DNA of 64,000 nt from Myxococcota bacterium (GTDB lineage: Bacteria > Myxococcota_A > UBA796 > CAJQPC01): the NCBI GenBank assembly GCA_036012755.1, contig DASCPX010000183.1, positions 1 to 64,000 of the forward strand, read 5' to 3'. Positions 12,584 through 60,173 of the stretch are shown here, one piece after another (positions within the stretch are counted from its first letter, which is position 1; every line of letters begins with the position of its first letter). The translations under genes and the position numbers were made by a program. Below the pieces are notes generated by a model, which saw only the letters and a program-made list of their open reading frames with translations, did no database searches and was not told the origin of the DNA.

Positions 12584-14329
12584 TCACTGGCGCTCCGTGA
12601 TGAAGAAGTCCACCCGCCTGTTCTTGTCCCAGGCTTCCGGGACCTCTCGGTCATCGACCGGACGGGACTCTCCATAGCCCTCGGCGCGCAGGCGGGTTGC
12701 GTCGATACCGCCCTCGATGAGGTAGGCGCGGACCGCCTCGGCGCGCTCCTCCGAGAGCTGCTGGTTGAAGTCGTCGTCCGCCCGGCTGTCCGTGTGGCCC
12801 TCGATGCGGATGCCCAGGATCTCCGGGTGAGCCGCCAGCGTCGCGACCACGTCGTCGAGGAGTCCGAAGCTGTCGGGGAGGATGACGGCGTTCCCGGTCT
12901 CGAAGTAGATGCTCCCCCCGAGTTCGATGCGCTCCGCGGTCACCCGCACGGTCGTCGGCTTCAAGGTCAGGGCGACCGTGTGACTGAAGCCCACCTCGAC
13001 CGGGACCTCCTGGGAGTCGGGCAGGTGTCCGTCGGCGTAGCCGCTCACGGTGTAGGTGCCTGGCGGGATCCGGATCTTCTTCTCGGCACCCTGTGCCTCG
13101 CCGTCCAGAGCCCAGAAGGCGCCGGCCACGTCGTCGCCCTCTGGATCGAGCAGGAGCACCTTGATCGTGCCGAGGCCCTGCGGCCTGAGGTCTTCGGTGG
13201 CCTCCCAGGGCGGTCCGTTGGGCACCTCGATGAGGAAGCGGGCGGGCTGGAAACCCTCCGCGCGGGCCTCGACCAGGTGCTGGCCGGGCTCGAGGTTCTC
13301 GCCCCCTCCGTCGTGGATGGCGCCGTCGATTTTCACGGCCACCGCCGGGACCGGGATGCCCTCTGGATCCAGGAAGCGCACGGTGACCCACACGGGCTCG
13401 GGGCAGCCGTCCTCGTCGCGCCAGCCGTCGATGTCCTCTGGCACGTCGGGGCAGGGGTCGCGCTCGTCGGGGAGGCCGTCCTCGTCTCGATCGCTCACCT
13501 CTCGCGAGGGCTCGTAGGCGAAGACCCAGACCGCCCGCGCGCGCGGGACGCCGACTCCGCGGGAGAGGCCCTTGCCGACGCCGAGGCGCATCTGGAAGGC
13601 ATCGCCCAGGTAGAGGAAGCCGCTGCCGAGGGCCTCTGCCTGGAGGCTTCCGGGAGCCAGCACGCCGGGCTGGAAGGCGGTGTTGGCCTCCAGCGCCAGG
13701 CCGCCTTGTGTGGAGGGGAGCCAGGCGAGGCCTGCCCGGATCGCCAGCTGGTCGTCCTGGGCGAAGTTCTCCAGCTCGACGGTCGGCATGCCCCGCCAGG
13801 CCACGTTCAGGGCGAGGAGGTGGTGCTCCCAGCGCCGGTCGAGGATTGCCTGGAGCTCCCACCCGAGGCCGTCGTTGCCCAGGGCGTCGACCGTGGCGAT
13901 GGGGAGCACGACCCTGCCGCTCGCGGCGAGGCCCCAGGGTTTTTCGCCTTCGACGAGCGTCGCTTTCAGATCGAAGGCGAGGTCGCCCCGGCCATTGGAG
14001 CGGCCGGCTTCGCCGTCGACGTAGGCGTAGTAGGGCAGGGTGGTGCCGAGCCGGAAGCGACCCAGCGTGGTCGCCACGAGGGTGTCCTCGCGCTGGACGT
14101 GCTCGACCAGGGCCTGCGGGTCTCCGTCGACGCCGGTGTATGCCAGGGGCCGGTTGGCGTAGCTGACGAGCAGGCGGGCGTTGGTGTGGAGGAGCGGGCC
14201 GTGACCGGACTCGTCGACCGTCAGCATCCAGGGGTTGTCGACCGAGGGGCGGAAGACATCCGCGGTCAGGGGGGGCACCTCGCCGTCGGTGACGGGGTCT
14301 GCGAGCGCGAGGGCGACGAGCCACGTCAT
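12584..14329 (-). CDS. OmpA-family outer membrane protein with beta-barrel-like N-terminus and thrombospondin type 3 repeats (TraB-like architecture)
   Basis: MTWLVALALA signal; DRDEDGLPDERDPCPDVPEDIDGWRDEDGCPE; IEGHTD...NQQLSEERA...GYGE...NRRVDF OmpA domain; ATGA overlap with upstream gene. Confidence 0.88.
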   Translation of the reverse strand: MTWLVALALADPVTDGEVPPLTADVFRPSVDNPWMLTVDESGHGPLLHTNARLLVSYANRPLAYTGVDGDPQALVEHVQREDTLVATTLGRFRLGTTLPYYAYVDGEAGRSNGRGDLAFDLKATLVEGEKPWGLAASGRVVLPIATVDALGNDGLGWELQAILDRRWEHHLLALNVAWRGMPTVELENFAQDDQLAIRAGLAWLPSTQGGLALEANTAFQPGVLAPGSLQAEALGSGFLYLGDAFQMRLGVGKGLSRGVGVPRARAVWVFAYEPSREVSDRDEDGLPDERDPCPDVPEDIDGWRDEDGCPEPVWVTVRFLDPEGIPVPAVAVKIDGAIHDGGGENLEPGQHLVEARAEGFQPARFLIEVPNGPPWEATEDLRPQGLGTIKVLLLDPEGDDVAGAFWALDGEAQGAEKKIRIPPGTYTVSGYADGHLPDSQEVPVEVGFSHTVALTLKPTTVRVTAERIELGGSIYFETGNAVILPDSFGLLDDVVATLAAHPEILGIRIEGHTDSRADDDFNQQLSEERAEAVRAYLIEGGIDATRLRAEGYGESRPVDDREVPEAWDKNRRVDFFITERQ

Positions 14330-15198
14330 CGCCTTCTCCGCAGGGCGGCCAGCGCGAGCAGCGCGGCCCAGATGCCACCGCCACTCGAGGAGCAGCCGGT
14401 GCAGACACCGCCGGTGTAGCCGACGACGGTCCCGTCCTCGCGGCAGACGCTGAGCTGGTCGGGGACCACCAGCTCGAAGGTGGCCTCCTCCTGGGAGAAG
14501 GCGTAGAAGCCGAGGGGTCCGGCCGGGTGGTTGCCCTCGAGATCGAGGACCTCGAGCCCGTCGACGCTGACCGTGACCCGGGTCGAGGTCGCATCGACGA
14601 TGACGTCGTAGGTCGTCTGGGGGTCCCAGCCCTCGTCCGAGAGGTCGCCGAGGCCGGCGATCTCGGAGACCGTGTTCTCGTGGCACCAGAGGTCGCTGGT
14701 GTCGGCTGGTCCGTTGACGAGGCTTACGCTCAGCCCCTCGGTCGCGTAGCCGCAGACCTCTGACTCCCCGCTGCCCTTCCAGTCGAAGAGCAGGTAGCTG
14801 GCCTCGTCGGTGCGGGCCTCGTTGGGCTCCAGCCCGAGGGTCCAGCCCACGAAGCCGGTGCCGCTGGCGTCGTCGACCCGGATCGTGAACTCCATGGAGC
14901 CCTCGTCGACCATGACCTCCGTCGTGTACGCGCTGGGCGCGGCGTCGAGGAGCTGGGTGACGGTGCGCTTGTCGCTGGAGAAGAACCAGGCGGGCTCGGC
15001 CAGGCCCCAGTCGTCGTCGAAGCCCTGGTCGGTGACAACGGTCACGGGGTCCTGGTTGCACTTCCAGCCGTCCTCGACCCGACACACGGAGTCGCAGCCG
15101 TCGCCGTCGTCGAGGTTTCCGTCGTCGCAGAGCTCGATCGGGTTGTCGAGGATGCGGTCCCCGCAGACGGCCCAGGCGGTGGTCGACAACAGCAGCAC
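14326..15198 (-). CDS. Surface protein with Myxococcus Cys-rich repeat, lectin/TSP-C-like domain and MYXO-CTERM sorting signal
   Basis: CGDRILD...CDDGNLDDGDGCDSVCRVEDGWKC repeat; C-terminus GCSSSGGGIWAALLALAALRRRR. Confidence 0.85.
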   Translation of the reverse strand: MLLLSTTAWAVCGDRILDNPIELCDDGNLDDGDGCDSVCRVEDGWKCNQDPVTVVTDQGFDDDWGLAEPAWFFSSDKRTVTQLLDAAPSAYTTEVMVDEGSMEFTIRVDDASGTGFVGWTLGLEPNEARTDEASYLLFDWKGSGESEVCGYATEGLSVSLVNGPADTSDLWCHENTVSEIAGLGDLSDEGWDPQTTYDVIVDATSTRVTVSVDGLEVLDLEGNHPAGPLGFYAFSQEEATFELVVPDQLSVCREDGTVVGYTGGVCTGCSSSGGGIWAALLALAALRRRR

Positions 15199-17169: not shown

Positions 17170-17177
17170 GGGTGTTT

Positions 17178-19106
17178 CTATTGCAGGGGGATGTCGTGCA
17201 GCCCGTCATCCCGTTCGACGACGAGGTCCACGCCGGGCCCACTGTAGTTGTCCAGCACCCAGCGCGTCGCCTCGTCCGCGTACTGGGGCGCCCACGCGAG
17301 GACATCCATGCCCATGACGACCACACCGACGATGACGTCGCCCTCCGCCAAGCCGTTGTCTTCCGCGGCGCCGCCTGGCTCCAGCTCGGCGATCTCCAGC
17401 TCGCCGTCGGCGGTCCTCGCCACCGCGAAGCCGTTTTCGTCCAACAGGTCCGCTTCGCCGGTCTCGAGGACGACCTGCAGTGCGCTGTCGTCCTCGACGC
17501 CCAGCGTGACGACTTCGAGCGGGCGCCTGGCGAGGAAGACGTCGTAGACGCCTGGCGGCAGCCCGGTCATCTCCACGACGCCCTCGGAGTCGCTCATGCC
17601 GCCGTGACCCACGGGGTTCACCGAGTCCCTGTCGCGCAGGTTGGCCAACACCGCCTCCCAGGCGGCCGGCTCCCCGGTGAGCCCGTCGTAGACCGTGACG
17701 GTGATGGCCCCGCCCTCGGAGAGATCGATGTCGCCAAGGTCCACGACGGTCCCTTCGACGTACACGTCGTCCTGGGGCCACCTGCCGTCCGTGCTGTAGA
17801 TCTCCACGACCCACCGACCTTCTTCCAGGCCGAGGATCTCGAAGGTGCCGTCATCCTCGCAGGAGCCGGTCCGCGCGTGTGTGCCGCCGCCGAGGACCTC
17901 GTCGACACCCTCTGGCATGCGGGCGGCGCCGTACCAGCAACGGAAGGGCGTCTCGTCTCTCCAGACCACGCCGCGGAGGCCGCCAGGGCTGCGGAAGTCG
18001 AGCCAGGCTGCGTCCTCGTCGGGGCCGACCTCGACCGCCTGGCCGCCACCGCGGAGGGCCACCTGGCCTTCGGGGCAGACGCAGGTCGTCGTCGCGTAGC
18101 TCTCGCAGAGCTCGCCGACCGGTGACAGCGGATGGGTGCAGAGGATGGGCACGACGGTCTCGCAGGAGTCGTCTGGGAGGCCCGCGCAGTAGACCTCGAC
18201 CAGCCGGAAGGACCTGGCGACGAAGTCGACTCGAAGCTCCTCTGCCCCCTCTGGGACGTGGACGCTGCGGGTCTCTCCGAGCCAGCCCGCCTCCGCCGGA
18301 GAAGCGACCAGCCTCCAGTCCCTGCCCGAGGCCAGGTGGATCTCCCACACGCCCTCTGCGTCCACCTCGCCCCGGAGCTCTCGAAAGCGGGCCCAGACCG
18401 CGCCGTCGATGGGATCTCCGGCGGGGGTCGTGAAGGTGCCCCACACACGGGTCCCCTCTCCGAGGGTGAGCTCGATCCGGCGGGGCCCGGTGTGCTCGTC
18501 GCGGTGCTCGACGGTGCCGTAGCCTTCGCGTACGGCCAGCAGCGATACGCGTCCGCAAGCAGCGAGCGGGAACTCGTGGTGCCCGTCGACGGTCTCGACC
18601 GAGCGGCTGGAGGTGAAGGGGAAGCCCTCGCTGTAGACGGAGAACAACAGCGTGGCGTCCAGCGGCTCGGCGTGCTCGTCGACGACCTCCACGGTGACCG
18701 GGCAGAGGTCGGGGACCAGGAAGTCGAGGCCTTCGGCGGGCTCCGTCGCCGCGACGCGCCTGGGCTGGCTGGTGAGCTCGACGGGGTGGATCCAGGTCGA
18801 GGCCGAGAGCTTCAGCCGGTAGCTCCCGTCGGCGCTGGTCTTCACGGACTCGCCCTCGCTCGAGCGGATCGTGAGGCCCTCGACGGGCTCGCCGCCGAGG
18901 GTGTGGACGGCGCCCGCGACCTCGAAGGCGGCCTCGGCCTCGGGCAGCACCGGCCTGCTCCGGGTGCGCTGCTTCACCTCGTTCCCGAGCACCGCTCGCT
19001 GGGGTCGCAGGCCCTCCAGGATCCAGGCGCCCAGACCGGCGCATGCCACCAGGAGGGTGATCGACAGCGCAGAGAGCGCGATGCGCCGGTTCTTGACGGG
19101 GCTCAG
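17178..19106 (-). CDS. Paralogue of 15199..17169 (beta-sandwich repeats + PDZ-like domain)
   Basis: Shared VYCAGLPxDSC...CTHP...CxCPEG...WLDFR block and PGGAAEDNGLAEGD; a complete signal anchor needs CTG start at 19106 (first GTG is 19049). Confidence 0.78.
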   Translation of the reverse strand: MSPVKNRRIALSALSITLLVACAGLGAWILEGLRPQRAVLGNEVKQRTRSRPVLPEAEAAFEVAGAVHTLGGEPVEGLTIRSSEGESVKTSADGSYRLKLSASTWIHPVELTSQPRRVAATEPAEGLDFLVPDLCPVTVEVVDEHAEPLDATLLFSVYSEGFPFTSSRSVETVDGHHEFPLAACGRVSLLAVREGYGTVEHRDEHTGPRRIELTLGEGTRVWGTFTTPAGDPIDGAVWARFRELRGEVDAEGVWEIHLASGRDWRLVASPAEAGWLGETRSVHVPEGAEELRVDFVARSFRLVEVYCAGLPDDSCETVVPILCTHPLSPVGELCESYATTTCVCPEGQVALRGGGQAVEVGPDEDAAWLDFRSPGGLRGVVWRDETPFRCWYGAARMPEGVDEVLGGGTHARTGSCEDDGTFEILGLEEGRWVVEIYSTDGRWPQDDVYVEGTVVDLGDIDLSEGGAITVTVYDGLTGEPAAWEAVLANLRDRDSVNPVGHGGMSDSEGVVEMTGLPPGVYDVFLARRPLEVVTLGVEDDSALQVVLETGEADLLDENGFAVARTADGELEIAELEPGGAAEDNGLAEGDVIVGVVVMGMDVLAWAPQYADEATRWVLDNYSGPGVDLVVERDDGLHDIPLQ

Positions 19107-19723
19107 AGCTGGTAGTCGACCGAGCGGGAGAACAGCGCGCTCGACGGGGCGCCAGAGGCGGAGGCGGTGCCGACGGTGATCTCCAGCGTGCCGCGCTGAT
19201 CGGGGACCGGGACGAGCATCTTCACGAAGGCGATGGTGGGACCTGCCTGGGCGATGGCGGCCTTGTTGACCTGCTGGCGGGACTCGGCGACCTTCAAGCC
19301 GTCGGCGTAGACCTCTGCGGTCAGCCAGTAGGTCCGACCCTCGTAGTCCCCCGGGTTGCGGGCGAGCAGGATCGGGAGCTCGACGACGACCGCGTCGCGG
19401 TCAGCGAACACGACAATGGCTTCGTAGTTGTCGGCCAGCGGCGACTTGCCGACGACGGAGTAGGGGAGGGAGGTCGCCTTGTTGGTTCCCAGCGAAGGGC
19501 TCGAGCGCTCGGAGATGTCCGGTGCGGGGCCGAGGTTTCGCTCGTCGGGCGGGGCGGCGTCCTGCCAGTCGCCGAAGTCCGCCTCCTCCTCGACGTCGAA
19601 GTCGCTCGCCTCGATCGCCGCTGCCTTCGCGGCTGCCGCGGCCTCGTCGCCTTCGTCGAGGAAGCCGAAGTCGTCGTCGTCTTCGGCGAGGGCGAGGCTG
19701 ACAACAGTGAGGAGCCAGAGCAT
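19103..19723 (-). CDS. Exported hypothetical protein with acidic N-terminal region
   Basis: MLWLLTVVSLALA signal, co-oriented and coupled with the downstream operon. Confidence 0.8.
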   Translation of the reverse strand: MLWLLTVVSLALAEDDDDFGFLDEGDEAAAAAKAAAIEASDFDVEEEADFGDWQDAAPPDERNLGPAPDISERSSPSLGTNKATSLPYSVVGKSPLADNYEAIVVFADRDAVVVELPILLARNPGDYEGRTYWLTAEVYADGLKVAESRQQVNKAAIAQAGPTIAFVKMLVPVPDQRGTLEITVGTASASGAPSSALFSRSVDYQL

Positions 19724-19763
19724 GTCGGTGTCCTATGAGCCTGCAAGATAAGGGGCTTGCCAG

Positions 19764-21784: not shown

Positions 21785-21785
21785 C

Positions 21786-21836
21786 GCCATCGAGCCATCG
21801 AGCCATCGAGAACGATCATCGATCCATCGAGCATCG
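21786..21836. repeat. Short intergenic tandem repeat (GCCATCGA)x3 plus degenerate CATCGA copies
   Basis: Read directly between convergent genes. Confidence 0.8.
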
Positions 21837-21879
21837 GGGCGGGCAGCCCGGAAGCTCCAGTTGCGTACCTGTGGGGTAC

Positions 21880-31449: not shown

Positions 31450-32261
31450 GTATCCGCGATCGTGCAAGGACCGGGCTGCAGGCGCTGCCTCGAAGACTCA
31501 GGCGGCGACTGGGTTCCCGCGGCATACGACGCGAGGACATCGAGCTCCAGAGCCTCGTCGGCTACCGCATCGCCGGCACCATCTGGAGAGCCCCCGGGGC
31601 CAGGACCGCGATCATCCTGACGCCGGGAACCAACGACCCCGGGAGCGTGTTCGAGGGCTGGACCCAGCCGGTGAATGCCATGGAGATCGCCAGCCTCGGC
31701 TACGTGTGCGCGCACTTCGACCCGGCGGGTCGGGGGAGGAGCTGGGGCGAAGAGGACTACGGCGGCCCCGAGCACCAGGACGACCTCCGGGTGGTCATCG
31801 AGCACCTCCGCCCACAGGTGGAAAGCCTGGGCGTGCTCAGCATCTCGTTGGGAATCGCGATGGCGGCGGGAGCCCTGACAGAGGACCTCGGCGTCGACTG
31901 GCTGCTGGACTGGGAGGGCCCCTGTGATCGCGAGATCATCTGCGCGGGCGGTCGCATGATGGCCCCGGCGCTGGGCCACGACCTCGAGGACGACACCTAC
32001 TGGTGCCCGCGCGAGGCGGTCGTCCACGTCCCGAGGCTCCGCTGCGGCTACGTGCGCGTCCAGTCCAGCCGCGACCACGCTCAGCCCGGCGAGCTGCGTC
32101 ATGCCACCCGCATGATCGAGGCGGCCGCCGGCGGAGATCTCCCCTTCTTTCATCTCAACGAGCACGGCGACGGGGTCGTGCCCGAAGAACCCGACTGGTA
32201 CGCTCCCGGGCGCGCAGTCGCGAACCGGACCCTGCTTGGCTGGGTACAGAGGTTGACATGA
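31446..32261 (+). CDS. Alpha/beta hydrolase family protein
   Basis: HFDPAGRGRSWG, LSISLG nucleophile elbow, DWEGP. Confidence 0.78.
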   Translation: MSIRDRARTGLQALPRRLRRRLGSRGIRREDIELQSLVGYRIAGTIWRAPGARTAIILTPGTNDPGSVFEGWTQPVNAMEIASLGYVCAHFDPAGRGRSWGEEDYGGPEHQDDLRVVIEHLRPQVESLGVLSISLGIAMAAGALTEDLGVDWLLDWEGPCDREIICAGGRMMAPALGHDLEDDTYWCPREAVVHVPRLRCGYVRVQSSRDHAQPGELRHATRMIEAAAGGDLPFFHLNEHGDGVVPEEPDWYAPGRAVANRTLLGWVQRLT

Positions 32262-32731
32262 TGCTCTGGCTCCTCACATCGCTCGCGCTCGCTGGCGCGC
32301 GCAGTCTGGACATGACCCTGCAGGTGGACGGGGTGGCGATCTCCGAAGGCAGCTACGTGCTGCCGACCCAGCCCGAGAGCGTCGAGTTCGACGTCGAGGG
32401 AGCGCCGCACCTCGCCACCGCGACCTTCGAGAGCCGACACGACACGGTGCGTGTGCACATCCGCGTCGACGAGCTCAAGGGCAAGAAGCGCAAGCCCTCC
32501 GAGGTGACCGCGCTGGAGCTCACGCTCTACGAGGACTACCCCGGCGTCCTGGACCGCAGCGTCGAGGGCAGCGCCTACAAGCTCGAGGCGGTCTGGACCG
32601 ACACCAACCCGAAGAAGACACGCCTCGAGGTGCCCCCGGTCCCGCCGGAGGCGCTCGAGGCCCCGCCCGCAGGGGAGACACCGGAGGCCCCGCCCGCAGG
32701 GGAGACACCGGCCGAGGAGCCAGCCGGCTGA
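32258..32731 (+). CDS. Exported hypothetical protein with Pro-rich tail
   Basis: MMLWLLTSLALA signal; ATGA overlap; 27-bp duplication 32657-32710 (EAPPAGETP x2). Confidence 0.72.
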   Translation: MMLWLLTSLALAGARSLDMTLQVDGVAISEGSYVLPTQPESVEFDVEGAPHLATATFESRHDTVRVHIRVDELKGKKRKPSEVTALELTLYEDYPGVLDRSVEGSAYKLEAVWTDTNPKKTRLEVPPVPPEALEAPPAGETPEAPPAGETPAEEPAG

Positions 32732-32733: not shown

Positions 32734-34717
32734 GTGCTCCTCCTCGTCGCTGCTGCCCTGGCTCAGGAGCCCGAGGGCCAACCCATCGACGAGGTCGTCG
32801 AGCGCACCGCCACGGCCTTCGAGGAGTCGCGGGTCCTGCGGGTCGTCCCGGCGGTGCTCGATGAGCTGCAGGTCAAGGAGCTCGTGCCCATCCTGCGCGA
32901 GGTCGAGACCAGGGACGACAAGGACGTCCGGGACTACATCCTCCTGTCCCGGCTGTACAGGCACCTCGACGAGCCAGACCAGGCCGTCAGGGCGCTGTCG
33001 GAGGGAGGCCTTGAGCCTCGAACCCGACAACGCCCAGCTCCGCATCGAGTACGCCTACGCCCTGCTGGAGAAGGGGGAGCTGGAGGAGGCCCGCGCCAGC
33101 GCGCGTGAGGGCGTGCTGCTCGACGAGTCACAGATCCGCGTCGCCACCGTCTACGCCGCCGCGCTGGGGTGGCCCTGGCCCTTTCTCGGCGCCAGCCTCG
33201 GCTCGATCTGGATCGCCGGGCTGCTGGGCTGGCGACGTCACCGGGGCGTCTCGGCCTGGATCGGCCGCACGGATGGAATCGCCGGGAGTCGGCACATCCT
33301 CCCGGCCCTGGCTCTCTGCGTCAGCGTCTCGCTCGGGCTGCAGTTCCTCTTCACCGCCCACAAGGTGGCCTTCGTGCTGCTGTCGTCCTGGGCGATCCTC
33401 AGCGCGGCATGGCTCGTCTTCGATCCCTTCCGCGAGCCGCTCGGACGCGCGGCCCGGGCCGTCGGCGGCTCTCTCTCCCGGCTCGCCACGGGGCGCCTCG
33501 GGGCTCCGCTGTCACGGCTGCCCCCCGGGACCCAGGTGCTGTTGCTCCTGGCCAGCGCCTTCTTCCTCGTGTCGGTGGCGCCCTTCATCGAAAACGCGGA
33601 TCTGCGGCTCGTCGCGATCTTCCTCGGCGGGATGCTGTTCTTCTCCACCCTCGGCGGGATCATCCTGCGCCTGCTCGGACGCTCCGCCAGCCTGCGCCGT
33701 AGCCTGCGATGGCTGGCTCTCGGCGGCACGCTGCCCTTCCTGGTCTTCTTCGTCTACGCCGAGCACGAGTCCATCCGCGTCTCCATCCAGTCAGCAGAGG
33801 CGCTCAGCAGCGCCGCGGCCGATCGCCTGGTCGGCTACCTCGTCGTCTGGGGCATCGGCGCGCTGCTCGCGCTGCTGCTCGCAGGCATCATCAGCCGCAG
33901 CATCCTCGACCCGGTGCGCAGCATCCTCAGCGCCGTCGAGGCGGTTCGGGCCGGCGACCTGGGGTCCCGCACACAGGTCGATCGTAGAGACGAGATCGGC
34001 ACGCTGGCCGGTGCGGTCGACGAGATGGCGGCGGGACTGGCCGAGCGGCGCCGCATCGAGCAGACCTTCCGCCAGTACGTCGCCGGCGCGGTCGCCGAGC
34101 GCTTGATCGCCGGGGACACCCTGGTCTCGGAGCCTCGCCGTGTGCACGCGGTCGTGCTGTTCTGCGACGTGCGTGGCTTCACGGCGCTGTCCGAGAAGCT
34201 CGAGCCCGAAGACGTCGTCCGCCTCCTCAACGGGGTCTTCGGCCGCATCGCCCCGGTGGTCCGCACCTGGGGTGGGGTCGTCGACAAGTTCCTCGGCGAC
34301 GGCATGATGGCCGTCTGGGGCGTGCCCGAGCCTCTCCGCAAGGGGGCCCACGTGGGGGTCTCGGGCGAGGAGCTCGCTTCCCGCGCGGCGCTGCAGATGG
34401 TGGCCGAGGTGGAGGCGCTCGAGGCCGAGCTCTGACAGCGGGGGCTGCCCGCGATCTCGATCGGTGTCGGCGTCAACGCCGGCGAGGTCGTCGCCGGTCC
34501 CATCGGGAGCACCGAGCGCAAGGAGTACACGGTCATCGGCGACGCGGTGAACACGGCGCAGCGGGCCGAGTCCCAGGCCCGGGGCGAGGTCGTGCTCACC
34601 GAGGCGGTCATCGAGGTGCTCGGTGACCTCGTCGAGGTCGTGCCACGCGATCCTGTGGCGCTGAAGGGGAAGTCCGAGCCCGTCCTGCTCTACACCCTCA
34701 CTCGCCTCCGCAGATAG
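32734..34717 (+). pseudogene. Disrupted membrane adenylate cyclase (signal, TPR, multi-TM, HAMP, class III cyclase): frameshift near 33004 and in-frame TGA at 34433
   Basis: TPR continues across frames at GAGGGAGG (33001-33008); past TGA 34433-34435 the frame continues [34 protein letters not shown] to TAG 34715-34717. Confidence 0.85.
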
Positions 34718-35138
34718 CGGTCTCGGCGTCGCACTCGAAGAGCACGCCCAGGTCGCGGCAGGGGCCCGTGCCGCTGTCGAGGCAGTCGCCGACGGCGAGC
34801 GAGGTGATCGCGTGGCCGTGCCACCAGGCGCAGCGCTCCGCCGGGTCGTAGAGGACCTGGAGCTCAAAGGTCATCTCCGGGGGCACCTCGATGCAGAACA
34901 CCCCGCCGACGTTGGCGGTGGTCTCGTTCAGCAGCGTGCAGTCCGTCGGGTCCCAGGCCCGGACCGCCGCGCTGGGGGCCCCCTGGTTGTCGTAGTCGCG
35001 CGCGACTCCGCTCACGCAGGCGTCGTTGGTGCGGCTGTCCTCGTCTTCGCTGTCCTCGTCTTCGCTGTCCGAGTCGTCCGTCGGCGAGCTGTCCACCGAG
35101 TCCTTCGGAGACGTGCAGGCCAGCAGGATCAGGAGCAT
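34698..35138 (-). CDS. Small Cys-rich lipoprotein
   Basis: MLLILLA-C lipobox, D/S-rich tether, eight further Cys. Confidence 0.75.
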
Positions 35139-37430: not shown

Positions 37431-39539
37431 ATGTGGCTGCTCGTCGTCCTGTCCTGTCGCGAGAACATCGGCATCGCCGATGTCGGCTCGGGCGAGGGAG
37501 AGCCCTGCGAGGATCACGAGACCTGCGCCAGCGGGCTGGTCTGCGCCCACGACGGAACCTGCCAGGTCGAAGACAGCCCAGGGACCTACGCCATCGGCGA
37601 GGAATGCCTCCACGCAGAGGAGTGCCAGCTGGGCCTGATCTGCGACTCCGACGGACAGTGCGCCGAGCCTGGCGCCGAGGGCACCGGACAGGCGGACGAC
37701 GCCTGCGAGGACGACGGGGACTGCGCGCTGGGACTGGTCTGCTCGGACGGGCTCTGCGAGGACCTCGGCGTGCCCTACTGGGAGGGCGTCACGTGCGAGG
37801 CGGACTCGGGCGACTTCCGCATCTACACCGAGGTCCCGAGCCTGCCCGAGGAAGACACCATCGAGTTCTACCGGATGCCCTTCGCCTCCGACGCGCGTGT
37901 CGACGGAGATGGCCACCTCGAGCTCTCCGGCCACAGCTCTCCTGGAGGCGCGGTCGACTCCTGGCTCGCGGCCGCCCTGCGACCCTCCGACCTGGGACTC
38001 ACGCCCACGGTGTTGTTTCGAGCCAGCGGTCGCCTGGACACGGACAGCGTGCGTGGTCTCTCCGACGACGACACCCTGTCGATGGCCGACCTCGACCAGA
38101 GCTCAGAGGACTACGGCTTTCGAGGCAGCTTCACCTGGCGTGTGAGCCCGGGACGCGGCCGCTACCACTGCGAGAACTGGATCGGGGTCCAGACCTTCCC
38201 GGGTGTGCCGCTGGCCGCTGACGGCAGCTACGGCGTCTGGCTCACCAGCGGGGTCCAGAGCGCCACCGGCGAGTCGGCTTCCCGAGACGAGGATCTCGAC
38301 GCGCTGCTCTCGGAGGAGACCCCCACCGACGCCCGCCTGCTCGTCGCGTGGAATGCGTGGTCCCCGCTCCGCGACTTCTTCTCTCGCAACGGGGTCGACC
38401 CCGACACGGTCGTCGGGGCGGCGGTGCTCAGCACTGGGAATCCCGCCGCTCGGGTCCGCTCCATCGAGGACCGGCTCGAGGGCGAGGCCGTCTCCTCGGA
38501 CTTCCCCGAGCTGGTCGACTGCGCCTCCAGTCCTTGCGAAGGGGGCTGCGCAGACGACGTCACGGAGCTCCATGGGCAGCTCGCACTGCCGATCTTCCAG
38601 GACGAGGCCGGCGCCTGGGACTGGGACACCTTCGGAAACCCCTACCTGCGCGGCGAGGAGCTGGCCTGCGTCGCCATGACGACCCCTGGAGCTGGCGAGG
38701 ACTGGCCTGTCGTCGTGGTCGTCCAGGACGAGGGCGCCGGCTTCCGGGACTGGATCGACACGGGGCTGGCCAGGGAGCTGGCGGAGGCTGGCTTCGCGGC
38801 GATCAGCGTCGAGCTGCCCCACCACGGCACCCGCGGTCGAGGGGACGGCAGCCTCTACGACCTCGAGGATCCGGAGCGTTGGCTCGGCGATCGGCTCCAG
38901 CTGGTCGCGGACCTCGTCCAGCTCTCGCGAGTCCTGGAGGGGCGCGAAGTCCACGCCGTCGGTCATGGCGTCGGCGGTGAGATCGCGCTGGGCTGGGCAT
39001 CGACCCGGCGGGACGTGTCCACGCTGGTCGTCGGCGGAGTTGGGGGCGGGCTCACGGACCGCCTGCTCGAGGTGGAGCGCGACGGGGTGCCCGTCCACTA
39101 CAGGCTCCAGGTCATGCTCGCGGACTCCAAGCTCGGCAGCTACCACCCGATGCTGGCGCTGATGCAGTACGTGCAGGAGCGTGCCGATCCCCTCGTTTGG
39201 GCCGAGGACGTCTGGAAGAACCCCCCCACCGCGACCGAACCCAGCCACGTGCTCCATCTCTACGGCGCCGAGGACGAGGTGGTCGGCGCCCCGGCTCAGC
39301 AAGCCCTGCAGCGGGCCCTCGGCCTCCCCACGCTGGAGCCGGTGTTGGTGGACTTCGAGCAGTCCACTGTTACCGGCTCCGCCTCGCGCAACCTGCTGAA
39401 CGACCGCGGTGATCGCATCACCGGCGCGTCGGTGCAGCTCGACGCGGGCCACGACGCGATCTGGTCCGACGAAGGACGTGACTACGTCGTGCGCTTCCTG
39501 GCGTCCTCGCTCGAGGCGGACGAGCCGACGATCGAGTGA
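37431..39539 (+). CDS. Lipoprotein with Cys-rich repeats and alpha/beta-hydrolase (lipase-like) domain lacking the nucleophile Ser
   Basis: MWLLVVLS-C; three C..C...L.C...C repeats; FYRMPFASD, ELPHHGTR, VGHGVGG. Confidence 0.75.
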   Translation: MWLLVVLSCRENIGIADVGSGEGEPCEDHETCASGLVCAHDGTCQVEDSPGTYAIGEECLHAEECQLGLICDSDGQCAEPGAEGTGQADDACEDDGDCALGLVCSDGLCEDLGVPYWEGVTCEADSGDFRIYTEVPSLPEEDTIEFYRMPFASDARVDGDGHLELSGHSSPGGAVDSWLAAALRPSDLGLTPTVLFRASGRLDTDSVRGLSDDDTLSMADLDQSSEDYGFRGSFTWRVSPGRGRYHCENWIGVQTFPGVPLAADGSYGVWLTSGVQSATGESASRDEDLDALLSEETPTDARLLVAWNAWSPLRDFFSRNGVDPDTVVGAAVLSTGNPAARVRSIEDRLEGEAVSSDFPELVDCASSPCEGGCADDVTELHGQLALPIFQDEAGAWDWDTFGNPYLRGEELACVAMTTPGAGEDWPVVVVVQDEGAGFRDWIDTGLARELAEAGFAAISVELPHHGTRGRGDGSLYDLEDPERWLGDRLQLVADLVQLSRVLEGREVHAVGHGVGGEIALGWASTRRDVSTLVVGGVGGGLTDRLLEVERDGVPVHYRLQVMLADSKLGSYHPMLALMQYVQERADPLVWAEDVWKNPPTATEPSHVLHLYGAEDEVVGAPAQQALQRALGLPTLEPVLVDFEQSTVTGSASRNLLNDRGDRITGASVQLDAGHDAIWSDEGRDYVVRFLASSLEADEPTIE

Positions 39540-39540: not shown

Positions 39541-39837
39541 TCACTGCCCGAGCTTGGGCGGCGGTGTCAGGCCGATGCCCCCACCCGCGCCGGGCCCGCC
39601 GAGCTGAGGGGGTCCTCCACCCAGGGTAGGCGCTCCGGTGGTCCCGCCGAGCTGTGGTGGGGTACCCAGGGTCGGGGCTCCGGTCGAGGTCGTCGCGGGT
39701 GGGACCTCGTCGGGCACCTCGGGTGCCACCTCCGTGACCTCCTCGAGCACGATCTCCTCTTCCTCGACCGGTGGGGGCGTCGGCTCGGGTGTCGCCTCTT
39801 CGGAACAGGCGAGGATCGCAGCAAAAAGCAGGCTCAT
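39541..39837 (-). CDS. Small Pro/Gly-rich lipoprotein
   Basis: MSLLFAAILA-C; TGATG coupling; repeated TGAPTLG..PPQLGG. Confidence 0.7.
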   Translation of the reverse strand: MSLLFAAILACSEEATPEPTPPPVEEEEIVLEEVTEVAPEVPDEVPPATTSTGAPTLGTPPQLGGTTGAPTLGGGPPQLGGPGAGGGIGLTPPPKLGQ

Positions 39838-44731: not shown

Positions 44732-46051
44732 TCAGAGCGGGTAGTCCGTCTGGAAGACCGTGAAGCGGTAGTAGGCAGCGGGGCCGTACTCGGTCCCGTC
44801 GTCGTTGGTCACCTGGATGAAGTACTGCCCTCCGTCGAGGGGACCGATGGGGCCGACGTCGCTGAAGTCGTCGTCCGTGCCGATGTCGTCGCCCTCTCCG
44901 ACGACCTCGCCGTCCTCGTCGTAGATCGTGACCTCGGCGTCGATCAGCGAGCCGAAGAGATCGGCGGTGCCGTTGAGGTAGAGGTAGTTGTCCGGGTCGA
45001 CCGAGATGCTGTACCAGTCCTCGTCGTAGCCGTAGTCCATGATGCCCCAGGCCAGGGCGGTGCCCTGCTCGCCGTCGTCGTTGGTCTCCCACACGAAGTC
45101 CATGACGTTGGCTTCGCCGTCGTAGTCGTTCGGCTCGAGCTCGGCCTCGTAGTGGTAGCCACGATCGTAGACGCGGACGTAGACGAAGCCCCAGTGGCTC
45201 TCGCCCCCATCTCCGCTGGCGTCGCTGACCGCCAAGGTGGCCTCGCCGCCGTCGACCTCGAAGTAGAAGCCCGAGCCGTTGTCGCCGCCCGGGGACTCCT
45301 TGCGCAGCAACAGGTCGCCCTCGATGTCGTAGAGCTCGTAGAGCGGCGTGGCGTCGGAGTCGACGGCGTAGGAGCTGCCGGTCAGCACGGTCGGGCACTC
45401 CTCGTAGGGCAGGGCGAGCTCGATGTAGTCGGTGTCGCCCTCCTCCTCGAGCAGCCAGCCGACGGCGTAGAAGTAGCCGGAGTCGACCTCGAGGAGCTCT
45501 CCGTTCTCGAAGCTGTCCGGGTCCTCTGTGCGGCGGCCGTACTCGGCCACCTCGAGCGTGTAGCTGAAGTCCGGGATGCCGATGTCGTTGATGTCCTCGA
45601 CCATGACCGTCCAGGCGCCTTCCTCGGGCAGGTAGGCAAAGAGCACCGTGTCGTAGGTCGTCACCGGGCCGAGGGCGTGGTCGTTCTCCTGAGCGTGGAG
45701 CTTGCCGGTGGGGCTGTACAGGGAGAGGAGGGTGTCGTTGTCTTCGTCATCGGTGATCGTGTCGATGCGGATGAACTCACCACCATCGGCGTTGAAGGTG
45801 AAGAAGTCCTGGTCGTCGTCGTCCTGCAGGACGCCTTCGACGGGAGCGTCCCAGAGGATCGACTCGGCCTCTTCCAGGGAGTTGTTCCGGTCCCCGGTGG
45901 TGCACTCCTCCTCGTCGCAGATCTGCCAGCTGCTGCAGTCGGTGTCCTCGGCGCAGGGAGTTTCGTCTGGGGGCGAGTCGTCGTTCGGCAGGTAGCCGGA
46001 GTCATCGGGGTTGCCGCGGTTGCAGCCCAGGACCAAGAGAGAGATCAGCAT
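44732..46051 (-). CDS. Acidic lipoprotein with repeated PPC-like beta-sandwich domains
   Basis: MLISLLVLG-C; DQDFFTF, DTLLSLY...NDD, EPND, DEDWYSI repeats. Confidence 0.8.
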   Translation of the reverse strand: MLISLLVLGCNRGNPDDSGYLPNDDSPPDETPCAEDTDCSSWQICDEEECTTGDRNNSLEEAESILWDAPVEGVLQDDDDQDFFTFNADGGEFIRIDTITDDEDNDTLLSLYSPTGKLHAQENDHALGPVTTYDTVLFAYLPEEGAWTVMVEDINDIGIPDFSYTLEVAEYGRRTEDPDSFENGELLEVDSGYFYAVGWLLEEEGDTDYIELALPYEECPTVLTGSSYAVDSDATPLYELYDIEGDLLLRKESPGGDNGSGFYFEVDGGEATLAVSDASGDGGESHWGFVYVRVYDRGYHYEAELEPNDYDGEANVMDFVWETNDDGEQGTALAWGIMDYGYDEDWYSISVDPDNYLYLNGTADLFGSLIDAEVTIYDEDGEVVGEGDDIGTDDDFSDVGPIGPLDGGQYFIQVTNDDGTEYGPAAYYRFTVFQTDYPL

Positions 46052-46121
46052 GAGCGAAACTTAGCTTGCCAGCCGCACCATGGCGGCTAATACGGGCGGC
46101 TGTCGCCTCTGGAGGTCCACC

Positions 46122-49093: not shown

Positions 49094-49205
49094 CGCCCCT
49101 CGGCAGAAGTCGCGATGCGCCTTCCACCGGCGCCTTCGGCGCGCGGCGCGGCGCATCGTTCACCCCGTCGCAGCCCGACTGCGTCGGAACTCGTGCCGGA
49201 GAGAA

Positions 49206-53908: not shown

Positions 53909-53935
53909 CTCGGCCCTCTAACCCCAGGCAAGATA

Positions 53936-55366
53936 GTGGAGCGCGTGCTCCTCCCCATCCTGCTGGCCTGCACAGGTGGGCCGACGCTGGTCCAGCCCGA
54001 GGGCACCATCGTGCTGGACCTCGTCAACCCGACCCCGACCGACGCGTTCAGCGGCGTCGACGAGATCTCGATCGAGCTCCGCGTCGGCGGCGTCGTAGTG
54101 GCGTCGGAGACCTTCGGCGTCGACGAGCCGGCCGAGATTCCAGGCCTCGATGCCTTCGGCACAGGGCGCTTCCACGTCGCTGGGCTCTCCGGCGGCACCG
54201 TCATCAGCTATGGCCGCTCGCCAGAGATCCTGCTTGGACCCGACCAGGACCACAACGTCGCGATCACCTTCCTGCCGGTCAACCAGGTCCTTTCCATCGC
54301 GGACTCGATGGCCGAGCCCCGCTCGCAGCATGGCGCCGTCCGGCTCCCCGACAACCGCATCCTGCTGCTCGGCGGGGCCAATCCGAACCGGGACGCCAGC
54401 TACGACGACGTCGAGATCTACGACCCGAGCGAGGGCATCTTCAAGCCCACCGGGACCTACCTGCCGCTGTCGCTGTACGACGTCGAGCTGTCGTTCTCGA
54501 CGGACCGGACGATCTGGCTCAACGGAGGGCGGACGCTGTTGTCAGAGGGGCCGAAGGTGCAGGCCATTTTCTTCGAGTACGACCCGGTCACCGAGCAGAT
54601 AGAGATGGCCGCCGACATGAACGTGTCCCGGGCCGGTCACTGCTTCCACGAGTTCCGCGACGGCTTCGGCGCCGCCATGGGTGGGAACCGGGACACCCCC
54701 GCGATCGACTACCTGCGTCCGGACCCCGACACCGGCGAGTGGACCTGGTCAGAGGTCGTGATCAGCGGCCTGGACCAGACGGCGATGACGGGCTGCGCCG
54801 CGCTGCCCACCGGCGAGGTCTTCGTCCAGGGCCTCAGTGACGACTCCACCGGCCTCTTCGACTTCAGCGAGGACGCCGCCGCAGCCAACCCGAACATCTC
54901 TGACGCCTTCTACGCCGTCGAGAGCGGGACCTACGAGCTGCTCGACGGCGCGATGCTGATCCCCGTCTCCGATGAGCAGGTCTGGGTCGGCGGTGGGCGC
55001 ACCATCGGTGGCGTGTCCGACACCACCGGGCGCATCTTCGACGTCCCGACCCGCAGCTTCGTGGGTGGGGTGGATCCCTCTCGCGAGCGGGTCGACGGCC
55101 AGTGGGACGAGTGGATCGAGGATGGCTGGTACGCCCTGGGCTGCGGCTCGCCCGACGGCGACAACTCTCGCTCCCAGACCACGATCGAGCTCATCAACCT
55201 GCTCTCCGGCGAGCGCTACTCCTACGTCGAGGGGGACCGCAGCCGTCCAGGTTGTGAGCTGACGGTGCAAGCCGACGGCGCGATCCTCATCACCGGTGGC
55301 TTCGAGTCCGGCGGTGACGCCGAAGCGAGCGCCGCCGTGATGGTCCCCTACAACCCCCAGGAGTGA
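53936..55366 (+). CDS. Kelch-repeat lipoprotein
   Basis: LLPILLA-C; PRSQHGAVRLPDNRILLLGG..VEIYDP and related repeats; start 53936 or 53945. Confidence 0.8.
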   Translation: MERVLLPILLACTGGPTLVQPEGTIVLDLVNPTPTDAFSGVDEISIELRVGGVVVASETFGVDEPAEIPGLDAFGTGRFHVAGLSGGTVISYGRSPEILLGPDQDHNVAITFLPVNQVLSIADSMAEPRSQHGAVRLPDNRILLLGGANPNRDASYDDVEIYDPSEGIFKPTGTYLPLSLYDVELSFSTDRTIWLNGGRTLLSEGPKVQAIFFEYDPVTEQIEMAADMNVSRAGHCFHEFRDGFGAAMGGNRDTPAIDYLRPDPDTGEWTWSEVVISGLDQTAMTGCAALPTGEVFVQGLSDDSTGLFDFSEDAAAANPNISDAFYAVESGTYELLDGAMLIPVSDEQVWVGGGRTIGGVSDTTGRIFDVPTRSFVGGVDPSRERVDGQWDEWIEDGWYALGCGSPDGDNSRSQTTIELINLLSGERYSYVEGDRSRPGCELTVQADGAILITGGFESGGDAEASAAVMVPYNPQE

Positions 55367-55367
55367 G

Positions 55368-57391: not shown

Positions 57392-58068
57392 GTTCGATGC
57401 CGCCAGGTCGCGCGCAGGATGCCGATGCCTGCTCGGATCGTGCCGCGGACGGTGCCCGAGATCTTCGAGCGACCGCCGCCCCGAGGCCGGTAGCGCACGG
57501 GCACCTCCTGGACCCGAAGGCCGTTCTGGACTGCCTTCATCTGCATCTCCACGTTCCAGCCGTAGGTCATCTCCGACATGCGCAGGGCCAGCAGCACGTC
57601 CCAGCGGAGGGCTCGGAAGGGGCCCATGTCCCGGTAGGTCCAGCCCGTCCAGCGGCGGATGAGGCGGGTCGCCAGCAGGTTCCCGAAGCGCTGGTTGGGC
57701 AGGAGCGCGCCCTGCTCGGCGAGGCTGACGCGCTCTCCCAGGACCATGTCGGCTTCGCCCTTGAGGATGGGCCTCAACAACAGCGGCAGGTCGTCCACGT
57801 TGTCGCTTCCGTCCGCGTCGAGGATGACGATGATGTCCGGTGGTGTCTCCTCCAGGTGTGCAAAGCCCGCGAGACAAGCAGAGCCGTAGCCCCTGCGCTC
57901 CTCGATCACGAGCTCGGCGCCCCCTTCCAGCGCGATGTCTCTGGTGCGGTCCGTGGAGCCGTTGTCGACGACGATGACCCGCCCGGGACGAAGTCTGCGG
58001 AGGTCCGCGAGCACCGACGGGAGGGCCTCCTCCTCGTTGAGGGCGGGGATGACGACCGCGACGCGCAC
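57388..58068 (-). CDS. Family 2 glycosyltransferase
   Basis: VVIPALNEE, VVDNGSTD, GYGSAC, LDADGSD, DMGPFRA, YGWNVEMQ. Confidence 0.92.
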   Translation of the reverse strand: MRVAVVIPALNEEEALPSVLADLRRLRPGRVIVVDNGSTDRTRDIALEGGAELVIEERRGYGSACLAGFAHLEETPPDIIVILDADGSDNVDDLPLLLRPILKGEADMVLGERVSLAEQGALLPNQRFGNLLATRLIRRWTGWTYRDMGPFRALRWDVLLALRMSEMTYGWNVEMQMKAVQNGLRVQEVPVRYRPRGGGRSKISGTVRGTIRAGIGILRATWRHRT

Positions 58069-58091
58069 CGTCGGTGGTTAATGTGCACCTG

Positions 58092-58532
58092 ATGCTCGCG
58101 CTTGCACTGCTGTTGTCCGTCGACGCCGCCGACAACCCCTTCCGCGTGCAGCCCCAGGGGCTCTCCGTGCCTGCTGGGTCCTCTGCCAAGGCCACCTTCG
58201 TCATCACCGTCCCCGACGGCACCTTCCTGTACCAGGACATGACGGAGGTGAAGGTGGTGGCCTCCGCGCCGCTGACCGCTGGTGCGCCCGACCTGCCTCC
58301 TGCGGTCGAGAAGGAGGACCCGGTCCTGGGCATGACGCGATCCATCTGGGATCAAGACGTCTACATCGAGATCCCGGTCACGGCTCCGGCAGAGCTGGGC
58401 GACCACTCGCTGGTCCTCGAGGCCAGGTACCAGGGCTGCAAGGGCACGCTCTGCTACATGCCGGTGACAGAGGAGGTCACGATCCCCGTGCGCGTCCTAG
58501 CCGCCGTAGATGCCGACGCTGGAGCTCCCTGA
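58092..58532 (+). CDS. Stand-alone DsbD N-terminal (alpha) domain protein
   Basis: Short signal; I.VPDGTFLY; YQGCKGTLCYMP Cys pair. Confidence 0.78.
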   Translation: MLALALLLSVDAADNPFRVQPQGLSVPAGSSAKATFVITVPDGTFLYQDMTEVKVVASAPLTAGAPDLPPAVEKEDPVLGMTRSIWDQDVYIEIPVTAPAELGDHSLVLEARYQGCKGTLCYMPVTEEVTIPVRVLAAVDADAGAP

Positions 58533-60173
58533 GACCACGTCACCGCGGGTCGAGCCCGTCGTCTCGAGCGACAGCGTGCCCTCGCCCAGGTACGCCCAGA
58601 CCTGCCAGTTGTCCAGGTCGCCCGCGTCGTAGAGCAGGTAGGCCTGCACCCTGTTCCAGTCCACCGGCAGCGTGCCTTCCTGGGTGAGGTCGTCGGTCTC
58701 GGCCAGGGCGTAGTAGGCGATGGCGTCGCCGCCCTCGAGCCGCCCCGAGGCGAAGAGGATGGACGAGCCGGTCTCGTGCTCGCCGATGACGGCGCTCATG
58801 AACTCCACCGGCATCTCCTCCCCGTAGAGGGTCACCTCGAAGGAGCCTGAGCCGTAGGCGAAGGTGTTCTCTGTTCCGTAGCTGCCCCAGGTCGTGTCGA
58901 AGGTGACATCGAAGCGTCCCTGCTCGGCGAGGCAGATCGCCTCCCGAAGCGAGTCGTCGATGGTGGGGGGACCGCTGGCGAGCTCGTCTTCGATGTGTCC
59001 GCGCCTCGAGGTGATGAAGTCACCCATGTTCTGGATGGTCTGGCGCCGCAGGGACTTGTCCTCGTAGTCGCTCAGGTAGGGCTTGGTCAGCGCCTCCATC
59101 TCGTCGAGCCGGGTCGCCCAGTGGGACTCGTCCCAGGTCGTCTCGAGCAGGCCATCGAGGGCCTCGAAGTAGCGGTCCTGACCCTCGGCCGTGTTGTAGA
59201 TCCGCCATGCCAGCATGCTCTCACCGGTCACGCTGGTCGGGCTGTAGGCGCCGAAGGGCTGCTCGCCCTCCAGGACGGCGTCGACACCCCACGGGATGAA
59301 GTGGAAGCGGTCGCCGTCGTCCGGATCCGCGTAGACGTAGAAGTTGTTGGTGTTGGCCGTGTAGCTGTCCCAGTGGCCGATGAGCACCTCTGTGGCCCAT
59401 GCCCGCAGGAAGGCGTCGACGTCCACGACCTCGTCCAGCTCGGCCAGCACCTCGTCGTCATCGGCCTCGAGCGCGGCCACCACGGCGGCGAGGTCCGCTC
59501 GGTCGCTGCCACCCCACTCGTCCTCGAAGGTGTCTGTCCAGCCCTCGCGGAAGTCCGACAGGGTGCCCTCGTAGAGGTGGCCGTCGCCGTCGCCGAACTC
59601 CCGTCGAAGCAGCTGGCGCTTGACCGGCTCGATGTTGGAGTACAGCCCGAGATCCTCGCCGTTGACGACCACGTGGGCGAAGTTGCAGCGCGACGCGGGC
59701 ACCCCGGCGGCCTCGTAGATCTCGAGGGCCATGCAGGTCTTCAGCCGCGAGGGGTCCTGGCGGGTGTTGTTGAGCGTCAGGTGCTCGACCTCGTGCCAGC
59801 GCTGTCCGCTGACGATGTCGTCGAGGTCCAGCTTGATGCCCGGACGTGTCGACTCCTGGGAGCCGATGAGCCCCTTCTTCCTGATGGCGACTGACTCCAT
59901 GAGGTCGCCGTCGAGGGTCACGTCAGCCTCGAACCAGGTGTAGGGATGAGCGAAGGGCTCATCCATGCAGTCCTCGCCGGCGAGGATGTCGAAGATGTTC
60001 CGCGCCTGGTTCCGCATCTCCTCGAAGTCCGCCTCCGACATCTCGATCTCGACCTCGATGACGTGGTCGGGGTCGTAGACGACCGCGGTCGGGTCGGTCT
60101 CCGGAGCGGCCGAGTCGTCGACGGGCAGGTTCGGGACGCTGTTCCGGGTGCAGGCCAGCAGGAGGATGGTCAC
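58497..60173 (-). CDS. CotH kinase family lipoprotein
   Basis: MTILLLA-C; IRKKG, LTLNN..QDPS, NGEDLGLYSNIE, LYEG, HWDSY..NNFY.Y, FIPWG.D. Confidence 0.88.
   Translation of the reverse strand: MTILLLACTRNSVPNLPVDDSAAPETDPTAVVYDPDHVIEVEIEMSEADFEEMRNQARNIFDILAGEDCMDEPFAHPYTWFEADVTLDGDLMESVAIRKKGLIGSQESTRPGIKLDLDDIVSGQRWHEVEHLTLNNTRQDPSRLKTCMALEIYEAAGVPASRCNFAHVVVNGEDLGLYSNIEPVKRQLLRREFGDGDGHLYEGTLSDFREGWTDTFEDEWGGSDRADLAAVVAALEADDDEVLAELDEVVDVDAFLRAWATEVLIGHWDSYTANTNNFYVYADPDDGDRFHFIPWGVDAVLEGEQPFGAYSPTSVTGESMLAWRIYNTAEGQDRYFEALDGLLETTWDESHWATRLDEMEALTKPYLSDYEDKSLRRQTIQNMGDFITSRRGHIEDELASGPPTIDDSLREAICLAEQGRFDVTFDTTWGSYGTENTFAYGSGSFEVTLYGEEMPVEFMSAVIGEHETGSSILFASGRLEGGDAIAYYALAETDDLTQEGTLPVDWNRVQAYLLYDAGDLDNWQVWAYLGEGTLSLETTGSTRGDVVSGSSSVGIYGG

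Follow-up and report, generated by a model that had tools for sequence, protein, structure and literature searches.

We found that a Myxococcota bacterium (GTDB lineage Bacteria; Myxococcota_A; UBA796; CAJQPC01; GenBank assembly GCA_036012755.1) carries, throughout its genome, predicted export signals of 7-13 residues that lack a basic n-region. The window analyzed here, 64,000 nucleotides in length, is the first 64 kb of contig DASCPX010000183.1, and belongs to a genome of 6.73 Mb with 68% GC and 96% completeness. An earlier reading of the window made from its letters alone (the sequence-only reading) had picked out 12 such N-termini and proposed that this lineage exports proteins with them. 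At the scale of the genome the proposal is well supported, with BamA and TonB-dependent, TolC-like and OmpA-family proteins among the carriers. By the textbook rule a signal is tripartite and has a basic n-region; lipoprotein signals are about 15 residues or longer, and signal peptidase I (SPase I) signals have a basic n-region and about 18-30 residues. Judged from sequence, the short leaders appear to act like signals for Sec and signal peptidase II (SPase II) or SPase I, but they fall outside these rules for n-region and length. We infer that the proteins are exported, lipidated and cleaved, and consider it likely that Sec export and processing are ordinary but make relaxed demands on the signal.

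Genes were predicted with a purpose-written caller (5776 genes), and starts were chosen for 5661 genes from coding score, start codon and upstream DNA signals, blind to peptide sequence. The sequence-only reading had called for genome-wide distances from start to lipobox cysteine and for n-region charges, and both bear it out. The cysteine lies within 14 residues of the start in 706 of 801 lipobox proteins, with a mode of 7, and 616 of the 801 signals are at most 9 residues long (119, 225, 163 and 96 short-class proteins at distances of 6, 7, 8 and 9). Lys and Arg are absent from 680 of the 706 short signals and occur in 87 of the 95 longer ones. Lengths are bimodal, with modes at 7 and, for the longer signals, at 15-18, and canonical lipoprotein signals, about 90 of them, persist in the same genome. 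Of 4429 ATGs near coding onset, 467 (10.5%) open a short uncharged lipobox leader, compared with 17 of 26000 internal ATGs (0.07%) and 53 of 41734 in frames that carry no gene. Similarly, a strict SPase I-type pattern (≤14 residues) was found at 149/5661 starts and at 8/22423 internal ATGs, with a peak at 10-11 residues; a looser SPase I class contained many false calls, and its count was not used. The SPase I-type short signals are mostly 9-13 residues long, with small residues at -3 and -1 and a polar mature start after A-x-A. Short lipoprotein signals consist of Leu (47%), Ala (18%), Ile (8%) and Phe (6%) above all. In the set of 757 short lipoprotein starts described below, position -1 holds Ala (527), Gly (133) or Ser (97) and position -3 holds Leu in 504, preferences partly imposed by the search pattern, which itself required the lipobox Cys at +1. 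With regard to twin-arginine translocation (Tat), the short leaders lack Arg, and only 10 loose Tat-like calls were obtained in the whole genome. Most short signals of this genome are on lipoproteins. Lipobox proteins, about 14% of genes, are strongly acidic, with a net charge of -13.8 per 100 residues in the short class.

Because the caller scores against DNA that encodes signals, it may have placed some starts too far 3', and independent start support was needed. We collected it for 757 short uncharged lipoprotein starts, out of 848 lipobox-like genes. For 408 of these there is no farther in-frame ATG, GTG or TTG before a stop. An in-frame stop lies within 8 codons 5' of 177 starts (TAG 88, TGA 66, TAA 23), and 148 starts overlap the stop of the upstream gene and are thus coupled to it. 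Shine-Dalgarno (SD) motifs precede 275 starts, GGAG occurring at 211/757 versus 1812/73046 internal starts, and a TAnnnT hexamer at -12/-13 precedes 120/757 versus 61/73046. We take this TAnnnT-to-start spacing to be that of leaderless transcripts; an mRNA of that kind would begin with the start codon itself and leave no room for extension. Altogether, 614 of the 757 starts have at least one of four supports (forced start, hexamer, SD or coupling), and we are highly confident that the short starts are right. Leaderless-type starts (TAnnnT, 6-7 nucleotides, start codon) are common in this genome, accounting for 629 of 5661 chosen starts, cytoplasmic genes included.

The true starts might instead lie farther 5', reached through near-cognate codons, stop read-through or another genetic code, in which case the signals would be canonical. 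The remaining 143 of the 757 short starts, which show none of the four supports, speak for this, as do a plausible longer start at 37431 in the window and the fact that starts are known here from DNA rather than from transcripts or proteomes. However, the stops within 8 codons of the 177 starts use all three stop codons, and all three terminate genes in this genome; among 55 tRNAs identified with ARAGORN, a TAG or TAA suppressor was not found. Upstream Lys/Arg content is the same in frame as in the other two frames; 36 near-cognate starts with an SD motif occur in frame, versus 23 and 33 in the others. An in-frame excess of starts past near stops (64 versus 38 and 44) is due to stops that end the upstream gene, and without those stops the counts are 36, 36 and 38 across frames. 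With the frame comparisons at chance level, an alternative code, read-through and near-cognate upstream starts were each ruled out, and we regard canonical signals with hidden upstream starts as very improbable. The ARAGORN set also includes tRNA-SeC, and none of its members is labelled Ile, that tRNA probably being unassembled.

We also examined proteins whose families require export, chosen by profile and not by leader, with leader type judged by eye. BamA, an essential protein of outer-membrane assembly (TIGR03303, 592 bits versus a cut-off of 297), has a signal of 13 Lys/Arg-free residues ahead of its first POTRA-like sequence. Its start overlaps the upstream stop, and the signal cannot be extended because this start codon is the first in the open frame. 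A basic n-region is absent from 5/5 Omp85-family proteins, from about 14 of 19 OmpA-family proteins (2 further ones are cut by contig ends), and from 2-3 of 4 TolC-like proteins (a fifth row displayed another frame). Among 10 TonB-plug proteins, 4 lack it, 3 are canonical and 3 are unclear. In addition, 11 pairs of paralogues share a domain, one copy bearing a short signal and the other a canonical one (12 were listed, one with a mis-parsed signal). These passengers bear directly on the idea that the leaders are decayed relics of proteins that are now cytoplasmic or non-functional. Many passengers do lack a family (6 of the 12 window proteins have no Pfam match), with nothing direct in favor of decay. 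Against it, BamA, TonB-dependent receptors, TolC-like and OmpA-family proteins bear short leaders, decay would touch about 14% of genes, and homologues retain short hydrophobic leaders of varied sequence. Decay is therefore scarcely credible. For the DsbD_N protein at 58092 in the window, 5/5 homologues found begin with a short Lys/Arg-free leader, their sequences differing; a search of named genomes with the CotH protein of the window found no relative.

The trait tracks one order, unevenly, and canonical signals coexist with it. The MYXO-CTERM domain and one LepB homologue labelled Myxococcota suggest, tentatively, an uncultured order of that phylum, other LepB homologues bearing Alpha-, Delta- or Proteobacteria labels. 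We searched 60 order genomes, 18 more from the same class and 323 further genomes for a DNA pattern made of an SD motif, ATG, four hydrophobic codons and a lipobox. It was present in 45/60 order genomes, with 25 matches in this genome and up to 31, and outside the order in 3/18 same-class and 19/323 other genomes (22/341), with at most 2 matches each. We also sampled about 800 kb of sequence from each of two sets, 7 order genomes and 8 class outgroups. Short calls were made for 18 of 49 lipobox genes in the order versus 3 of 35 in the outgroups, and by eye those three were internal codons of canonical signals. Two members of the order, G056 and G126, are almost wholly canonical. BamA signals grade across the order from 13 uncharged residues to canonical forms. 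Its N-terminus was displayed for 28 of 30 genomes, two having no N-terminal part; in 21 order members it lacks Lys/Arg in 6, has them in 11 and is unreadable in 4, and Lys/Arg occur in 6 of 7 outgroups, with one out of view. Core LolA and BamD mostly have canonical signals in the order. Unlike E. coli BamD, which is a lipoprotein, the BamD-like protein of this genome (C149:39926-40537) has a SPase I-type signal, and the lipobox Cys is absent in nearly all 30 class genomes read (G161 may have one). A tandem pair of BamA-like genes lies at G266:C1:1163267-1168160, the second 38% identical to the query, and Adk, encoded beside secY, carries a short order-specific insertion that could serve as an order marker.

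The sequence-only reading had supposed that such signals imply unusual Sec or signal recognition particle (SRP) targeting, or unusual processing by Lgt, LspA or LepB. Profile searches recovered one SecY, one SecA, Ffh, FtsY, three LepB-family proteins, two LspA and five Lgt, as well as Lnt, two LolA and two deformylases; SecE, SecG, SecF and YidC were detected by motif only. SecD, TatC, Fmt and trigger factor gave no match to motif probes, a result that does not imply their absence. The LepB catalytic motifs are intact. Export without SRP was ruled out by Ffh and FtsY in this genome and by Ffh in 16/16 order genomes, and loss of deformylase by the two copies. Altered LspA or Lgt was likewise rejected, with one order-specific column each and neither at a catalytic motif (for Lgt, 19 sequences from 15 genomes). 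Thus all components are present and LspA and Lgt look ordinary, and what is left of the supposition is a set of correlative changes: the comparison with relatives that it recommended (SecA, SecY, Ffh, Lgt, LspA and LepB) did reveal order-specific residues in SecY, SecA and LepB. A tandem lspA-lspA-lgt-lgt cluster occupies C59:99943-102615, and comparable duplications are found elsewhere in the order and the class.

Short leaders could also follow a dedicated route, such as insertion by YidC only, a lineage targeting factor or special Lgt or LepB paralogues, with canonical signals using the normal one. The bimodal lengths, the multiple Lgt, LspA and LepB-family copies, the mostly canonical core LolA and BamD, and a LepB anchor motif found order-wide (see below) are all compatible with this. 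However, same-class genomes with canonical signals also have multiple LspA and Lgt, there is a single SecY and a single SecA, and both the graded BamA signals and the paralogue pairs that switch signal type fit drift under relaxed constraint. Judged on these signals and on the known export and processing components, a dedicated route is unlikely in our view.

Under ordinary Sec export with relaxed requirements, the leader would consist of a hydrophobic core (h-region) and a cleavage motif: Met, 4-8 Leu-rich residues, and then the lipobox Cys or A-x-A. Such leaders would use the single SecYEG/SecA translocon and be processed by ordinary Lgt, LspA, Lnt or LepB. Seven residues measure about 10 Å as a helix and about 24 Å when extended, and the bilayer core measures about 30 Å. 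The leader would not need to span the bilayer as a helix, since opening the lateral gate of SecY and reaching enzymes that act in the outer leaflet would be enough. In the lipoprotein case, LspA cleaves within the membrane and h-regions are short, and so the signal need not span the bilayer (PMC9360617). Small changes in Prl mutants make Sec accept signal-defective precursors (PMC3164448). The early mature region, with a net charge of -3 over 20 residues and a positive charge in 4% of cases, may set the N-in, C-out orientation. The translocon would take short and canonical signals alike, and n-regions could therefore have been lost gene by gene, to an extent that differs across the order. Such loss under a permissive translocon agrees with the presence of short and canonical signals together, with the paralogue pairs and with the graded pattern seen in the order.

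A variant of this scheme is that the proteins are exported but the leader often stays uncleaved, as a small retained anchor, or that the Cys is lipidated without LspA cleavage. Leaders of 6-7 residues fall far short of the helix seen in models of LspA binding (PMC9360617). Yet LspA, Lnt and LolA are encoded, the cleavage motifs are canonical (partly imposed by the search pattern), and A-x-A stands before polar mature starts. Beta-barrel proteins, which normally lose their signal, are also among the passengers. Widespread retention of the leader is thus highly unlikely, and we return to relaxed but otherwise ordinary export and processing.

Candidate residues that might relax the requirements were sought in alignments, from which E. 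coli numbering is taken; 30 genomes were searched for SecY, one giving no match. SecY position 187 (I187 in E. coli) is Ala or Ser in 16/16 order genomes and Ile or Met in 13/13 outgroups, and position 192 (F192) is Thr, Ser or Ala in 16/16 and in 1/13, respectively. SecA position 372 (L372) is Tyr in 16/16 order genomes and Leu, Val or Met in 14/14 outgroups. The LepB membrane anchor carries a W-G/V-P motif in 16/16 order genomes and in 0/8 outgroups examined (6 further outgroups had no match). DNA patterns for the SecY change and for the LepB motif occur in 47/60 and 40/60 order genomes, respectively, and in 0/341 others, zeros that are partly circular given that both patterns derive from in-order sequences and that kin are non-independent. 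SecA L372Y adjoins A373, a site at which replacement by hydrophobic residues confers Prl phenotypes (bioRxiv 10.1101/2021.08.31.458331). Across 76 readable named loci, SecY 187 is Ile in 50, Thr in 19, Ala, Val and Ser in 2 each, and Gln in 1. We take I187 to be a member of the older six-residue pore ring. The available parts of PMC2585858, PMC7023257 and PMC5427846 do not name it as a ring member, and those of PMC11186639 give Sec61 I179, which we infer to be the equivalent of SecY I187, as a nearby residue only. On these alignments, SecY I187A/S and F192T in transmembrane helix 5 (TM5), SecA L372Y and the LepB W-G/V-P anchor are possible, though tentative, contributors. A bolder version, which we think rather doubtful, would be a natural Sec system with relaxed proofreading, in which a co-evolved SecY TM5, SecA stem (L372Y) and kinked LepB anchor make Met and the 5-6 hydrophobic residues after it sufficient for export and lipidation without the signal ever spanning the bilayer, the lipoproteome having grown to about 14% of genes. 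The initiator Met would possibly still be formylated, and if this version were true, transplanting the residues would let E. coli export through 7-residue signals.

Besides the caller's bias, several results weigh against relaxed export as framed here, most of them against the candidate residues. The core pore ring of SecY is described as four residues (PMC11186639, PMC13537251), and its four Ile are unchanged in 16/16 order genomes; for pore-ring and plug sites together, I82, I86, I191, I278, I408 and F67 are unchanged in 16/16. Among 147 diverse SecY representatives, 20 also have Ala or Ser at 187, just 3 of these combining it with a small residue at position 192. In cell-free screening of the E. 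coli system (supplement of PMC13537251), I187M, the sole I187 variant found in the part available, and F192S had little effect on translocation (log2 +0.47 and +0.28); F192L gave +1.31 and I191S +2.45. Order-specific columns amount to 8/439 in SecY, 17/889 in SecA and 9/491 in Ffh, and 1-4% of columns are likewise order-specific in the housekeeping neighbors Adk and L15. G056 and G126 carry SecY A187, yet only 1/10 and 0/5 of their sampled lipobox genes were called short; because these genomes combine A187 with canonical signals, A187 is at most permissive. LolA keeps a basic signal in 14/16 order genomes. Finally, the charge of the early mature region is equal after short and canonical lipoprotein signals (-3.05 versus -2.96, p=0.76), which rules out a specially acidic mature start as an adaptation. 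The notion that I187A/S is a lesion of the core pore ring is weakened by the intact core Ile, by A/S187 elsewhere and by the small effect of I187M. In Ffh, the finger loop of the M domain (C27:286578-288062) differs between order and outgroups, with 6 order-specific columns at residues 368-374.

Compared with the Sec/SPase II signals of E. coli Lpp type, the short lipoprotein leaders share a Leu-rich h-region, an Ala/Gly/Ser-Cys lipobox and a polar linker, and Lgt, LspA, Lnt and LolA are encoded; they differ in having no basic n-region and a modal length of 7. The SPase I-type leaders share with their canonical counterparts the hydrophobic core, the A-x-A site, periplasmic or outer-membrane passengers and LepB, but are mostly 9-13 residues long (13 in BamA) and have no n-region. 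Another parallel is with E. coli prlA (SecY) and prlD (SecA) suppressors, which also tolerate truncated or charge-less signals. Here, where export would be by similar tolerance, order-specific changes are found one turn away from I191 of the pore ring and beside SecA A373. Unlike the suppressors, the present case is natural and genome-wide, and the strong sites I86, I191, I278, I408, F67 and A373 are unchanged. A positively charged n-region is a standard element of the lipoprotein signal (PMC9360617), and SignalP 6.0 presupposes an n-region of 2 residues or more, about 4 on average (bioRxiv 10.1101/2021.06.09.447770). No description of such signals was found in the literature searched, which included the available part of PMC11495043 and left subscription journals largely outside; 31 uncharged N-termini have been predicted in an archaeon (PMC3824201; predictions only). 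The usual signal-peptide rules would thus not be universal, with hundreds of proteins, BamA included, at roughly half the textbook length. About 700 lipoproteins together with BamA offer natural test cases for the minimum needed by SecYEG, SecA, Lgt, LspA and LepB, and three named residue changes provide a concrete hypothesis. The envelope proteomes of the order may be under-predicted, an n-region being built into prediction tools, and the engineering of protein secretion could benefit from minimal signals or from permissive variants of the translocon.

The 12 N-termini of the window were all found at the coordinates and on the strands that had been reported (Table 1). Seven of the 12 proteins were checked by exact sequence, and all seven occur in public gene calls with the same starts. 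In-frame stops had been described one codon 5' of 15198 and four codons 5' of 19723 and 46051, and are there; the start at 15198 cannot be extended because the in-frame TAG directly precedes its GTG. The four starts said to overlap the stop of the previous gene are those at 14329, 32258, 39837 and 60173. The description of the leaders as uncharged holds for most, with the exception of 53936 (MERVLLPILLA-C) and of 58092, which has Asp at -2. Alternative starts exist 10 codons 5' of 37431 (ATG) and, as GTG or TTG, within 12 codons 5' of 35138, 39837 and 58092. Of the passenger domains that had been named, OmpA, CotH, DsbD_N and Kelch were recovered with Pfam and MYXO-CTERM was also confirmed; the PPC domain assigned to 46051 was not (no match at Pfam E≤0.001).

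Table 1. Short-leader genes and -10-like hexamers in the window
Feature	Positions	Strand	Signal	Start context and remarks
OmpA-domain protein	12584..14329	-	MTWLVALALA, 10 residues, SPase I-type	ATGA overlap with upstream stop
Cys-rich-repeat MYXO-CTERM protein	14326..15198	-	10 residues	GTG start immediately 3' of in-frame TAG
Acidic exported-type protein	19103..19723	-	13 residues	No family match; in-frame stop is fourth codon 5'
Exported-type protein	32258..32731	+	12 residues	ATGA overlap with upstream stop
Open reading frame, probably 5' part of frameshifted TPR/HAMP gene	32734..33108	+	10 residues	No in-frame start upstream
Predicted lipoprotein	34698..35138	-	MLLILLA-C, 7 residues	
Predicted lipoprotein	37431..39539	+	8 residues	Start ambiguous (ATG 37401 gives 18-residue signal with Arg)
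Small predicted lipoprotein	39541..39837	-	10 residues	TGATG overlap; GGAG 5'
Predicted lipoprotein	44732..46051	-	9 residues	No in-frame start upstream
TAAGTT, -10-like hexamer	46058..46063	-		6 nucleotides 5' of 46051 ATG (leaderless-type); its TAA is the in-frame stop
Kelch-repeat predicted lipoprotein	53936..55366	+	11 residues with Glu and Arg (53936) or 8 uncharged residues (53945)	
TAATGT, -10-like hexamer	58079..58084	+		7 nucleotides 5' of 58092 ATG
Stand-alone DsbD N-terminal-domain protein	58092..58532	+	12-13 residues	
CotH-family predicted lipoprotein	58497..60173	-	7 residues	GTGA overlap with upstream stop
TACCCT, -10-like hexamer	60181..60186	-		7 nucleotides 5' of 60173 start

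At 12584-15198 on the minus strand, the Cys-rich MYXO-CTERM gene is coupled to the OmpA-domain gene, a pair that to us is reminiscent of the myxobacterial traAB arrangement. The top NCBIfam match of the OmpA-domain gene (12584-14329) is TraB, at 113 bits and far under the cut-off of 700. Around position 32990, the open reading frame at 32734 appears to be frameshifted and to continue in a longer frame, which has HAMP-type matches and a TPR-like stretch (32734-34435, plus strand), and this break seems to be an assembly error or the mark of a pseudogene.

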